Shown in pieces: positions 17,936-18,873 of a DNA stretch of 41,595 nt. Every line of letters begins with the position of its first letter. Position 1 is the first letter of the stretch. Source of the stretch: a virus. Its lineage: Duplodnaviria > Heunggongvirae > Uroviricota > Caudoviricetes. The position numbers and the translations under genes were made by a program. The notes beneath the pieces were generated by a model. The model ran no database searches. It saw only the letters and a list, made by a program, of their open reading frames with translations, and was not told where the DNA came from. The DNA lies in IMG/VR virus record IMGVR_UViG_2541047952_000001; one strand, written 5' to 3'.

Positions 17936-18873
17936 CCCCTGAATCCTGCCGGGATCTGGCTGTAGTCCACGTTGTCGTAACTGGATTTGAAGTACGGGTC
18001 TTCGCGTTTTTCGGTGTACGTGCTAACGGACGGTGATAAGCGCAGGGAAAGCTCATCCCATTTTTCCCGCAACTTCGACGGGCTGAGCACGTTACGGCAC
18101 CAGAACGGATCGCGGCTGACGCGGCTGTACATCTCGCAGATTTGTTTGTGAGTACGACCATCCTGCACACACATCAGGCGAATTTCGTTTGCCCAGGCTG
18201 TCCAGTTCGGTTCTTTGGGACGAACCACCTCGCCGTCACATTCGGCGGCTTGCTCGTACAGGGCGATGATTTTTTTCCAGAGCCACTGTGCGCAGGTCAA
18301 ATCATCCTGCGTTCCCCACTGGCGCTTTTTAGGGCTGAATACAACCGCATCAGGATGGCGAGTTAAAAAATCCTGTTCATCCGTCTGCGTGTCCGGTTGC
18401 GAAGCGTCCGGACGAGAAGGTTTTTTATCTGACGGATCATGTTTTGATTTTACTGACGGATCCCCGCCAGATTCTGACGGGTGAAAACCCGCTTTTTTGC
18501 CAGATTTCGACGCATCAAATTTTGACGGGTCAGATTTTGATGCGTCAGATTTTGACGGGTCAGAATCTGACAGTTGAGAAAATGCCGCTGCCTGAAGCTT
18601 CGCAACGTTAAGCTGATAAACATTCGACGCATTGCGGTTACCCTGGCGACGCGCCTTACGCGTTAACCAGCCTTCTGCTTCCAGCCGTGCGATAGCCGTT
18701 CTGACGGTACTCATTCCCGCGCCAATCTGGCGGGCAATGGTTTCAATTGATGGCCAGCACACACCTTCGTCATTACTGAAATCAGCCAGGCGGGCCATAA
18801 TTGCCACGCTGGATAATTTCATGCCTGATGCAGCGCAACCATCCCATACATAGCCGGTTAATTTAGTGCTCAT
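17932..18873 (-). CDS. replication initiation protein (O-like, N-terminal HTH) containing the origin iterons
   Basis: 313-aa ORF MSTKLTGYVWDGC... with an N-terminal winged-helix-like region and a repetitive Ser/Asp/Lys/Pro linker (DPSKSDASKSDPSKFDASKSG) encoded by tandem DNA iterons. Confidence 0.7.
   Translation of the reverse strand: MSTKLTGYVWDGCAASGMKLSSVAIMARLADFSNDEGVCWPSIETIARQIGAGMSTVRTAIARLEAEGWLTRKARRQGNRNASNVYQLNVAKLQAAAFSQLSDSDPSKSDASKSDPSKFDASKSGKKAGFHPSESGGDPSVKSKHDPSDKKPSRPDASQPDTQTDEQDFLTRHPDAVVFSPKKRQWGTQDDLTCAQWLWKKIIALYEQAAECDGEVVRPKEPNWTAWANEIRLMCVQDGRTHKQICEMYSRVSRDPFWCRNVLSPSKLREKWDELSLRLSPSVSTYTEKREDPYFKSSYDNVDYSQIPAGFRG
18427..18575. repeat. origin-type iterons inside the replication initiator gene
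   Basis: At least six copies of a roughly 15-18 bp unit (CAGATTTTGACGGGTCA, CAGATTCTGACGGGTGA, AGATTTCGACGCATCA, GATTTTGATGCGTCA and similar) at about 17-19 bp spacing. Confidence 0.6.

Follow-up and report, generated by a model that had tools for sequence, protein, structure and literature searches.

The stretch of DNA analysed here, 41,595 nt of viral sequence (IMG/VR record IMGVR_UViG_2541047952_000001; called the window throughout), is a lambdoid prophage of the SfII/SfIV type of E. coli and Shigella. We propose that this prophage very likely has its vegetative replication origin at about 18390-18575, a segment that encodes the linker of its own putative replication initiator. The repeat DNA of this segment is unchanged across many bacterial genera, which argues for an origin. 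A first-pass annotation, made from the letters of the window alone, had already read the repeats as an origin inside the initiator gene. This view is now supported by signs of selection at the DNA level, by co-variation of the repeats with the N-terminal domain (N-domain) of the initiator and by a position equivalent to that of the lambda and P22 origins.

Anatomy of the repeat array

All repeats lie inside a minus-strand gene, and the units are in frame on its coding strand, on which they are read here. Tandem Repeats Finder placed an array at 18501-18564 with a period of 15 (4.3 copies, score 86) or of 30 (score 100). This was by far the top score among its nine rows for the 41.6-kb window, the other eight being short repeats with low scores. 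The gene and the elements in it are:

17932-18873, minus strand: replication initiator gene, 313 amino acids (aa) (open reading frame (ORF) list; full-length match to phrog_391)
18499-18573, minus strand: five abutting 15-bp iterons, each a 12-bp core TCA AAA TCT GAC with a 3-bp variable spacer; consensus nCG TCA AAA TCT GAC
18573-18559, minus strand: iteron unit 1, CTG TCA GAT TCT GAC
18558-18544, minus strand: iteron unit 2, CCG TCA AAA TCT GAC
18543-18529, minus strand: iteron unit 3, GCA TCA AAA TCT GAC
18528-18514, minus strand: iteron unit 4, CCG TCA AAA TTT GAT
18513-18499, minus strand: iteron unit 5, GCG TCG AAA TCT GGC
18466-18480, minus strand: iteron unit 6, CCG TCA GAA TCT GGC, separated from unit 5 by an 18-nt spacer
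18462-18439 and 18438-18415, minus strand: two 24-bp GATC/A-rich repeats, each beginning GATCCGTCAG and continuing in an A-rich run
18391-18414, minus strand: G+C-rich conserved right flank, CGTCCGGACGCTTCGCAACCGGAC (per-column conservation, 57 loci)

The six units bear out the earlier count of at least six repeats, but their length is 15 bp and not the 15-18 bp given at the time. The regular spacing described then holds for the first five units (15 bp) and not for the later elements, which follow at 33, 21 and 24 bp. Likewise, the repeats do lie in the span 18427-18575 to which the origin had been assigned, but the origin would reach further, to about 18390, near which nucleotide conservation fades (57 loci, per column).

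The iteron core is a near-palindrome, TCAGAWTCTGA, which is perfect in units 1 and 6; the palindrome of unit 6, TCAGAATCTGA, sits inside the most conserved block. With up to two mismatches, the core TCAAAATCTGAC has 10 matches in the window, eight of them within 18466-18571; the number expected for the entire window is 4.4. The Ser/Asp/Lys/Pro-rich stretch encoded by the repeats (aa 101-153) is predicted to be disordered by AlphaFold2, in agreement with its first description as a linker. The disordered segment, aa 102-164, covers all repeat-encoded residues, with predicted local distance difference test (pLDDT) values of 26-37.

The opposite strand carries a terminator-like hairpin in the spacer between iterons 5 and 6 (18478-18491, plus strand; CGGGTGAAAACCCG followed by a T-run), the stem of which is not conserved among relatives. 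A scan for promoters and terminators returned nothing above chance.

Selection on the DNA of the repeats

The sample of relatives comprised 80 loci with relatives of the N-domain, drawn from one-genome-per-species contigs and from phage records. About 70 of these, with N-domain identities of 69-100%, are referred to as close relatives; their genera include Escherichia, Klebsiella, Citrobacter, Enterobacter, Yersinia, Pantoea, Erwinia, Rahnella, Proteus and Providencia. The first-pass annotation had named absence of the repeats from functional relatives as a finding that would speak against its reading; they were present in 69/69 close relatives, with 3-9 units per gene. Codon choice was counted in 352 units from 70 genes and compared with the rest of the same genes:

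Lys: AAA in 213/213 codons within units; 63% elsewhere
Glu: GAA in 53/53 codons within units; 57% elsewhere
First Ser: TCA in 87% within units; 16% elsewhere
Second Ser: TCT in 77% within units; 10% elsewhere
Asp: GAC in 78% within units; 49% elsewhere

The first codon of each unit, in turn, is free to vary. After the tandem units follows a block with the consensus TTT GAC CCG TCA GAA TCT GGS GGG GAT CCG TCA GTA AAT TCA AAA CAA GAT CCA TCA GAT AAA AAA. Normalised codon entropy was 0.17 in this conserved block versus 0.80 in the N-domain (Mann-Whitney p = 1e-13, a value that, like those for codon choice, takes no account of shared ancestry). The conserved residues of the block have a codon entropy of ~0, and the synonymous sites of the N-domain are near saturation. 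Third-position identity was 0.81 in the block, 0.57 in the N-domain and 0.61 in the C-terminal domain (C-domain). Between pairs of genes, 57% of the codons for the same amino acid differed in the N-domain and 10% in the block, an order that was reversed in only 1/2346 pairs. The region of iteron 6 was 95-100% identical in nucleotides across 69 loci.

Two genes, those of phiP27 (L004) and of a Klebsiella prophage (L090), carry compensated frameshifts by which 21-27 nt of the block are re-read, and the peptides LTLQNL and PVLTRQNLG replace FDPSESGG. The DNA of the frameshifted stretch is unchanged in L090 and differs by one base in phiP27; iteron 6 has been retained as DNA in both genes, which read it in another frame. 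Taken together, the comparisons indicate that the repeats are under purifying selection at the nucleotide level, independently of the peptide. Because invariant bases stand beside freely varying ones, the recent spread of a single allele cannot explain the pattern.

The repeats are inherited with the N-domain

The initiator matched phrog_391 ('replication initiation O-like') at 1.2e-135 over its entire length (protein 1-313, profile 1-298 of 298), and 2368 homologues of this type were found at E <= 1e-10, some of them named 'replication protein' or 'Replication protein 15'. The current annotation of the initiator is no more than 'helix-turn-helix domain-containing protein', and no origin is marked in the records of relatives that we examined. 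Its parts are:

18580-18873, minus strand: winged-helix DNA-binding domain at the N-terminus, aa 1-98; presumably reads the iterons (Pfam, AlphaFold2, Foldseek)
18034-18381, minus strand: C-terminal domain, helical, aa 165-280; presumably recruits the machinery for helicase loading (lambda O homology; pLDDT 86-94)
17935-18033, minus strand: C-terminal tail, aa 281-313, ending in DYSQIPAGFRG (sequence comparison)

Pfam HTH_36 (PF13730) matched aa 23-70 at 4.3e-11, and there was a weak match to DnaD_N. The AlphaFold2 model of the N-domain shows a helix-turn-helix with a beta wing at fair to good confidence (block-mean pLDDT 64-89), and a Foldseek search with it found winged-helix proteins of the MarR/ArsR type, some of them DNA-bound. 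Phage_rep_O (PF04492) did not match the window initiator at E <= 0.01, whereas comparable Pfam scans of lambda O and P22 gp18 gave matches to it at 6e-36 and 7e-38. The first-pass term 'O-like gene' is therefore apt for the architecture and the C-domain but not for the N-domain, which is of the HTH_36 and not of the Phage_rep_O family. By tblastn, aa 166-277 were 39.3% identical to lambda O (E = 9e-18) and 35% identical to phi80 gp15; lambda O could be aligned with the C-domain family, with 27 invariant columns. The C-domain also matched 'replisome organizer' proteins of Bacillus phages and phrog_4880. PF09524 (Phg_2220_C) gave no match to the window initiator, and a kinship of the lambda-O-like C-domain with the Phg_2220_C type was rejected (hhalign probability 0.3%).

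Among the relatives, the same N-domain with its iterons is joined to three unrelated C-terminal parts, and the break falls directly after the conserved block. These parts are lambda-O-like in 14 loci (the window included), of the Phg_2220_C type in 55 loci, and of a further type in phiP27. The iteron sequence goes with the N-domain: close relatives have TCAAAATCTGAC, phiP27 (60% N-domain identity) has TCAGAWTCTGAA, and the Rac-type N-domain (66% identity) comes with the different TCAAATWTTGAC / TCAACGGTTGAC. At the corresponding place in the gene, the mEp460/SfV initiator and HTH_36 initiators that are 34-41% identical carry unrelated repeats 18-24 bp long, and relatives in Psychrobacter, Phlomobacter, Thermomonas and Thorsellia likewise have repeats of a sequence of their own. 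A recombinant E. coli locus (L094; CP083701, 3001-3990) combines the N-domain and iterons of the Rac type with a C-domain and tail that are 97-99% identical to those of the window (99% for the C-domain). The crossover lies inside the shared segment with the GATC pair, and the next gene is yfdN, unlike in Rac-type loci, where it is a DnaC-like gene.

Sequence comparison thus indicates that iteron type co-varies, and is co-inherited, with the N-domain. That the iterons change with the type of N-domain points to their recognition by the initiator itself. The same linkage is known from lambdoid origins, the specificity of which follows the N-terminal part of O.

In distant HTH_36 initiators (mEp460, L086 2278-3096; L078; L080; L082), type-specific repeats of 18-24 bp are followed by 3-4 copies of an 11-12-nt sequence, GAACCnnTCAnn. 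With a period of 11 nt, as in L082, these cannot encode a peptide repeat. They resemble the GAYCCGTCA modules of the window and may represent a shared second origin element.

The tail of the initiator is 78.8% identical to the tails of the mEp460 and Stx2c-phage initiators. Two tail types occur, DYSxxPxGFR[GS] and WNxIWKExxQR, and are distributed independently of the C-domain type; the former is common to the otherwise unrelated initiators of mEp460/SfV and of Stx2c phages. The last codons of this former type (AGG GGG TGA, as in the window, or AGG AGT) also serve as the ribosome-binding site of the downstream gene.

Other explanations for the conserved repeats

The conserved DNA might instead be a cis-acting element of another kind, namely a patch of homology for module exchange, an operator (for autoregulation or for another protein) or a hairpin in the mRNA; we regard this as improbable. 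An exchange patch would fit the crossover of L094 within the shared GATC-pair segment and the joining of one N-domain-plus-repeat cassette to three unrelated C-terminal parts. Shared ancestry would suffice for such a patch, yet the 3-nt spacers and some codons vary beside invariant bases. As to an operator, iterons in known replicons often double as autoregulatory operators. Here, however, the iterons change with the N-domain type, and the window has no further copy of the motif, for instance at a promoter. RNA of the array in sense orientation is predicted to fold much more stably than shuffled controls (z = -5.2), but this potential arises because the units have dyad symmetry; moreover, it changes with the copy number of 3-9 units, and no Rfam family scored above threshold. 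A match far below threshold to an Rfam microRNA hairpin was set aside as explained by the dyad repeats. A role as recombination patch or operator would in any case be compatible with origin function.

The repeats could also be a by-product, with no function as DNA, of a low-complexity linker (Asp-Pro/Ala-Ser-Lys-Ser) prone to slippage. In-frame units do encode a pentapeptide repeat, the linker is predicted to be disordered, and copy number differs between relatives as slippage would have it. We nevertheless consider this very improbable: synonymous sites are nearly frozen across genera while those in the flanking domains of the same genes are saturated, two independent compensated frameshifts altered the peptide and kept the DNA, and the 11-nt repeats of the distant relative L082 are incapable of encoding a peptide repeat.

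Least probable of all is that an overlapping frame holds the synonymous sites in place, for which the ORF list offers a 55-aa ORF (18444-18611, plus strand) and a 60-aa ORF (18450-18632, minus strand): the 1-nt and 2-nt indels by which the main frame is shifted in L090 and phiP27 would shift any overlapping frame as well, the number of units varies from 3 to 9, the products of the alternative frames are themselves simple repeats, and neither ORF is annotated in the related records examined, although no family search of either was made.

Candidate unwinding element and GATC sites

The least stable 20-40-bp duplex of the gene is 18414-18454, at the 95th-96th percentile of the window. It falls in the pair of 24-bp repeats (18415-18462), which adjoins the iterons and has a G+C content of 35% over 48 bp; we take this pair as a candidate unwinding element. 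Its two Dam (GATC) sites, at 18435 and 18459, are invariant in close relatives, with GAT codons in 69/69 and 60/60 sequences. GATC repeats are kept at this place in phiP27 and in Rac-type genes too, even though the Rac-type iterons differ. The window as a whole has an ordinary number of GATC sites (172 vs 162 expected). Two genes downstream of the origin lies a gene for the corresponding type of enzyme:

16788-17474, minus strand: phage Dam (N6-adenine) methyltransferase gene (Pfam Dam, PF05869, 1.2e-45)

Most relatives have a DNA methyltransferase gene within one or two genes downstream of the initiator, and its type varies (Dam, PF05869, in the window; D12-class in L090; MT-A70 in L058). It is tempting to speculate about a functional link between the Dam gene and the two invariant GATC sites.

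The right flank (18391-18414), presumably comparable to the right arm of the lambda origin, might also form part of the origin. The lambda right arm, TTCGTCAGAGAATTCTGGCGAATCCTCTGAC (gene O in L087, nt ~480-510), resembles CCGTCAGAATCTGGCGGGGATCCGTCAG of the window (18453-18480). To judge from this resemblance, the right arms of lambda and of the window may share ancestry, which would stretch the homology of the C-domains upstream.

Neighbouring genes and helicase loading

Reading leftward from the repressor, the early region has the order cI-type repressor, cro-like gene, CII/YmfL-like gene, DUF4222 gene and initiator. After the initiator come PerC/yfdN, Dam, a protein with a LexA DNA-binding domain, and RusA. 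The genes used in the argument below are:

20176-20862, plus strand: cI-type repressor gene
19792-20040, minus strand: cro-like gene
18863-19042, minus strand: DUF4222 gene, 59 aa, with its stop overlapping the initiator start (Pfam DUF4222, 3.6e-17)
17441-17935, minus strand: yfdN, 164 aa, PerC family (Pfam PerC, 4.5e-9; phrog_1324 'transcriptional activator', 1.6e-78; NCBIfam ANR-type regulator)

The first-pass annotation had recognised no P-like helicase loader downstream and had called the next gene a putative regulator of 164 aa, and both statements hold. The next gene encodes the PerC-family protein YfdN, and searches of the neighbouring genes against Pfam, PHROGs and NCBIfam revealed no P-, DnaC- or DnaB-like gene, nor any other loader or helicase. 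The annotation of the complete SfII genome contains no helicase, loader or primase. YfdN itself was considered as a hidden loader and rejected, as a PerC/ANR-type regulator whose gene directly follows the initiator in only 19/~70 loci.

Just two of the ~70 close loci, phiP27 and one from Serratia, have a DnaC-like gene. In Rac-type prophages, the C-domain of which is 72% identical to that of the window, a gene for a DnaC-like AAA+ protein lies directly downstream of the initiator. From this arrangement and from the lack of a loader in the window, the C-domain would be expected to work with a loader of the DnaC type, in this case probably that of the host. A search for the DnaA box TTWTNCACA found none on either strand of the whole window, where about four would be expected by chance. 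In a Serratia metagenome-assembled genome (L049, 3001-3903), which has a DnaC-like gene downstream, the initiator ends in GGTDDDFI, an acidic tip that recalls the C-terminal tail of the single-stranded DNA-binding protein SSB.

On the other side of the initiator, the small DUF4222 gene behaves like a real gene, as homologues (30-85% identity) occur in 62/69 loci and nearly all of them stop where the initiator gene starts or a few bases from there. It is overlapped in a different frame by a YmfM-like ORF of 112 aa (18883-19221, minus strand; phrog_1170, 1.5e-69), which has matches in 44 of the loci searched. RefSeq annotates the DUF4222 frame and the SfII record the 112-aa frame; either the genes overlap or one of the annotations is wrong.

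Proposed mechanism

The following sequence of events would account for these features. The initiator would be made from the early rightward operon, and its N-terminal winged helix, probably in dimeric form, would bind the six dyad-symmetric 15-bp iterons (core TCAGAWTCTGAC) to form a nucleoprotein complex. The adjoining A/T-rich pair of 24-bp GATC repeats would then open, and the lambda-O-type C-domain would bring in the replicative helicase, probably as the DnaB-DnaC complex of the host, given that the phage encodes no homologue of P, DnaC or DnaB. Four elements of this scheme are inferred from the comparisons above, namely that the initiator binds the repeats, that the GATC pair unwinds, that host DnaC is used and that the segment is active as an origin.

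Several points weigh against an origin that works in this manner. The repeat period of 15 bp corresponds to a non-integral number of helical turns, and the half-sites of the 11-bp palindrome stand at a distance of only 6 bp, an unusual value for a dimer of winged-helix proteins; if the register were TCTGAC-nnn-TCARA instead, the distance would be 9 bp. The A/T-rich element is modest and much less A/T-rich than that of lambda. Without a DnaA box in the window, the helicase-loading route has no support from a cis-signal. The neglect of shared ancestry in the p-values has been mentioned, and frequent recombination at the module junction could inflate the apparent conservation, although this leaves the position-specific constraint unexplained. 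Finally, the literature searched contained no experiments on origin activity or initiator binding for the HTH_36 initiator family.

In an extended version of the model, a 'solo-initiator' origin, the C-domain, of a type that requires P in lambda and has a phage DnaC paralogue beside it in Rac-type prophages, would load host DnaB through host DnaC alone, firing would depend on adenine methylation of the two invariant GATC sites, and DUF4222 would be an accessory replication factor. We regard the combination of all three as no better than a tentative, rather doubtful proposal. If it were true, dependence on GATC methylation would explain why a methyltransferase gene is so often found just downstream, and DUF4222, translationally coupled to the initiator, would be an accessory replication factor that has so far gone unrecognised.

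Distribution and significance

The 1.9 kb around the initiator gene are 97-99% identical to SfII, SfIV and several E. coli phages and occur in >1500 complete E. coli genomes. The module is also present in the serotype-converting Shigella phages SfII and SfIV and in prophages across Enterobacterales. In a plasmid collection, every match was either a prophage within a large replicon or an excised element assembled as a circle, which is no proof of autonomous replication. To judge from its content of mcrA, pin/hin, tfaE, a lexA-like gene and an icd fragment, one of these matches, a circular 'plasmid' of 15,193 bp (L088, OR902851.1), appears to be an excised element of the e14 type that was entered as a plasmid; its homologue of the initiator is broken up into three small ORFs. 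In two E. coli loci (L055, L075) the repeats are deleted, and the first 79 residues of the initiator are joined to a terminase-like sequence in a protein of 456 aa. The product resembles YmfN of e14. Our literature search for iterons or an origin in SfII, SfIV, SfV, e14 or yfdO-type modules found no description, and the SfIV paper names only a 'replication module'.

An origin at this place would account for an extreme conservation of synonymous sites that would confuse codon-based evolutionary analyses. It would make a single gene of ~940 bp, holding its own origin, a candidate minimal replicon, and it raises the question of how a lambda-O-type domain recruits the helicase without a phage loader. 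The pairs of N-domain and iterons would be natural specificity variants for the study of initiator-origin co-evolution.

Comparison with known systems

The lambda-style layout, with the origin inside the initiator gene, is known; as far as sequence can tell, the window differs in having a DNA-binding domain of another family and no detectable phage-encoded loader. In gene O, the four lambda iterons span nt 349-433, and in gene 18 of P22 the annotated rep_origin covers nt 353-497. The window element occupies nt 301-459 of its gene (to ~480 with the right flank; the six units nt 301-408), and the first-pass comparison with lambda ori is thereby borne out in terms of gene position. As in lambda and P22, the origin would fall in the segment encoding a flexible linker between the DNA-binding and the recruiting domain. 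The window further shares with lambda dyad-symmetric iterons followed by the least stable duplex of the gene, a homologous C-domain (39% identity; in lambda O, the domain that binds P), iteron specificity inherited together with the N-domain, and a location behind cro and a cII-like gene in the early rightward operon. Unlike lambda and P22, whose N-domains belong to Phage_rep_O, it has one of the HTH_36 type. Its six iterons of 15 bp, the first five without gaps and in head-to-tail order, contrast with the four 18-bp iterons with spacers in lambda, and its A/T-rich element is weaker and composed of two GATC-containing 24-bp repeats. Lambda has a P gene and P22 a DnaB-type gene 12, whereas the window has neither.

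The Rac-type module (YdaS-YdaT-initiator-YdaV, the last being DnaC-like) also has an HTH_36 initiator, 66% identical in the N-domain and 72% in the lambda-O-type C-domain, and its iterons, again of 15 bp, occupy the corresponding part of the gene, next to the same GATC pair. It differs in its iterons (TCAAATWTTGAC / TCAACGGTTGAC), in the DnaC-like AAA+ gene that comes next and in the lack of DUF4222 upstream.

In iteron plasmids such as pSC101, F, R6K and RK2, a winged-helix initiator acts alone with host DnaB-DnaC on direct repeats beside an A/T-rich element, and some iteron-type origins, for example P1 oriR, require Dam methylation. Unlike those of the window, the iterons of plasmids are located outside the rep gene, usually ~22 bp apart, and are accompanied by DnaA boxes.

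In SPP1 (G38P/oriL) and the lactococcal phages TP901-1 and Tuc2009 (rep/ori), the initiator gene encodes an N-terminal DNA-binding domain and its internal repeats are the origin. These systems differ in having a dedicated helicase loader and/or helicase, Gram-positive hosts and unrelated repeats. The likeness to them extends to the C-terminal part of the initiator, in that the window C-domain matches the Bacillus 'replisome organizer' and most relatives have Phg_2220_C in its place.

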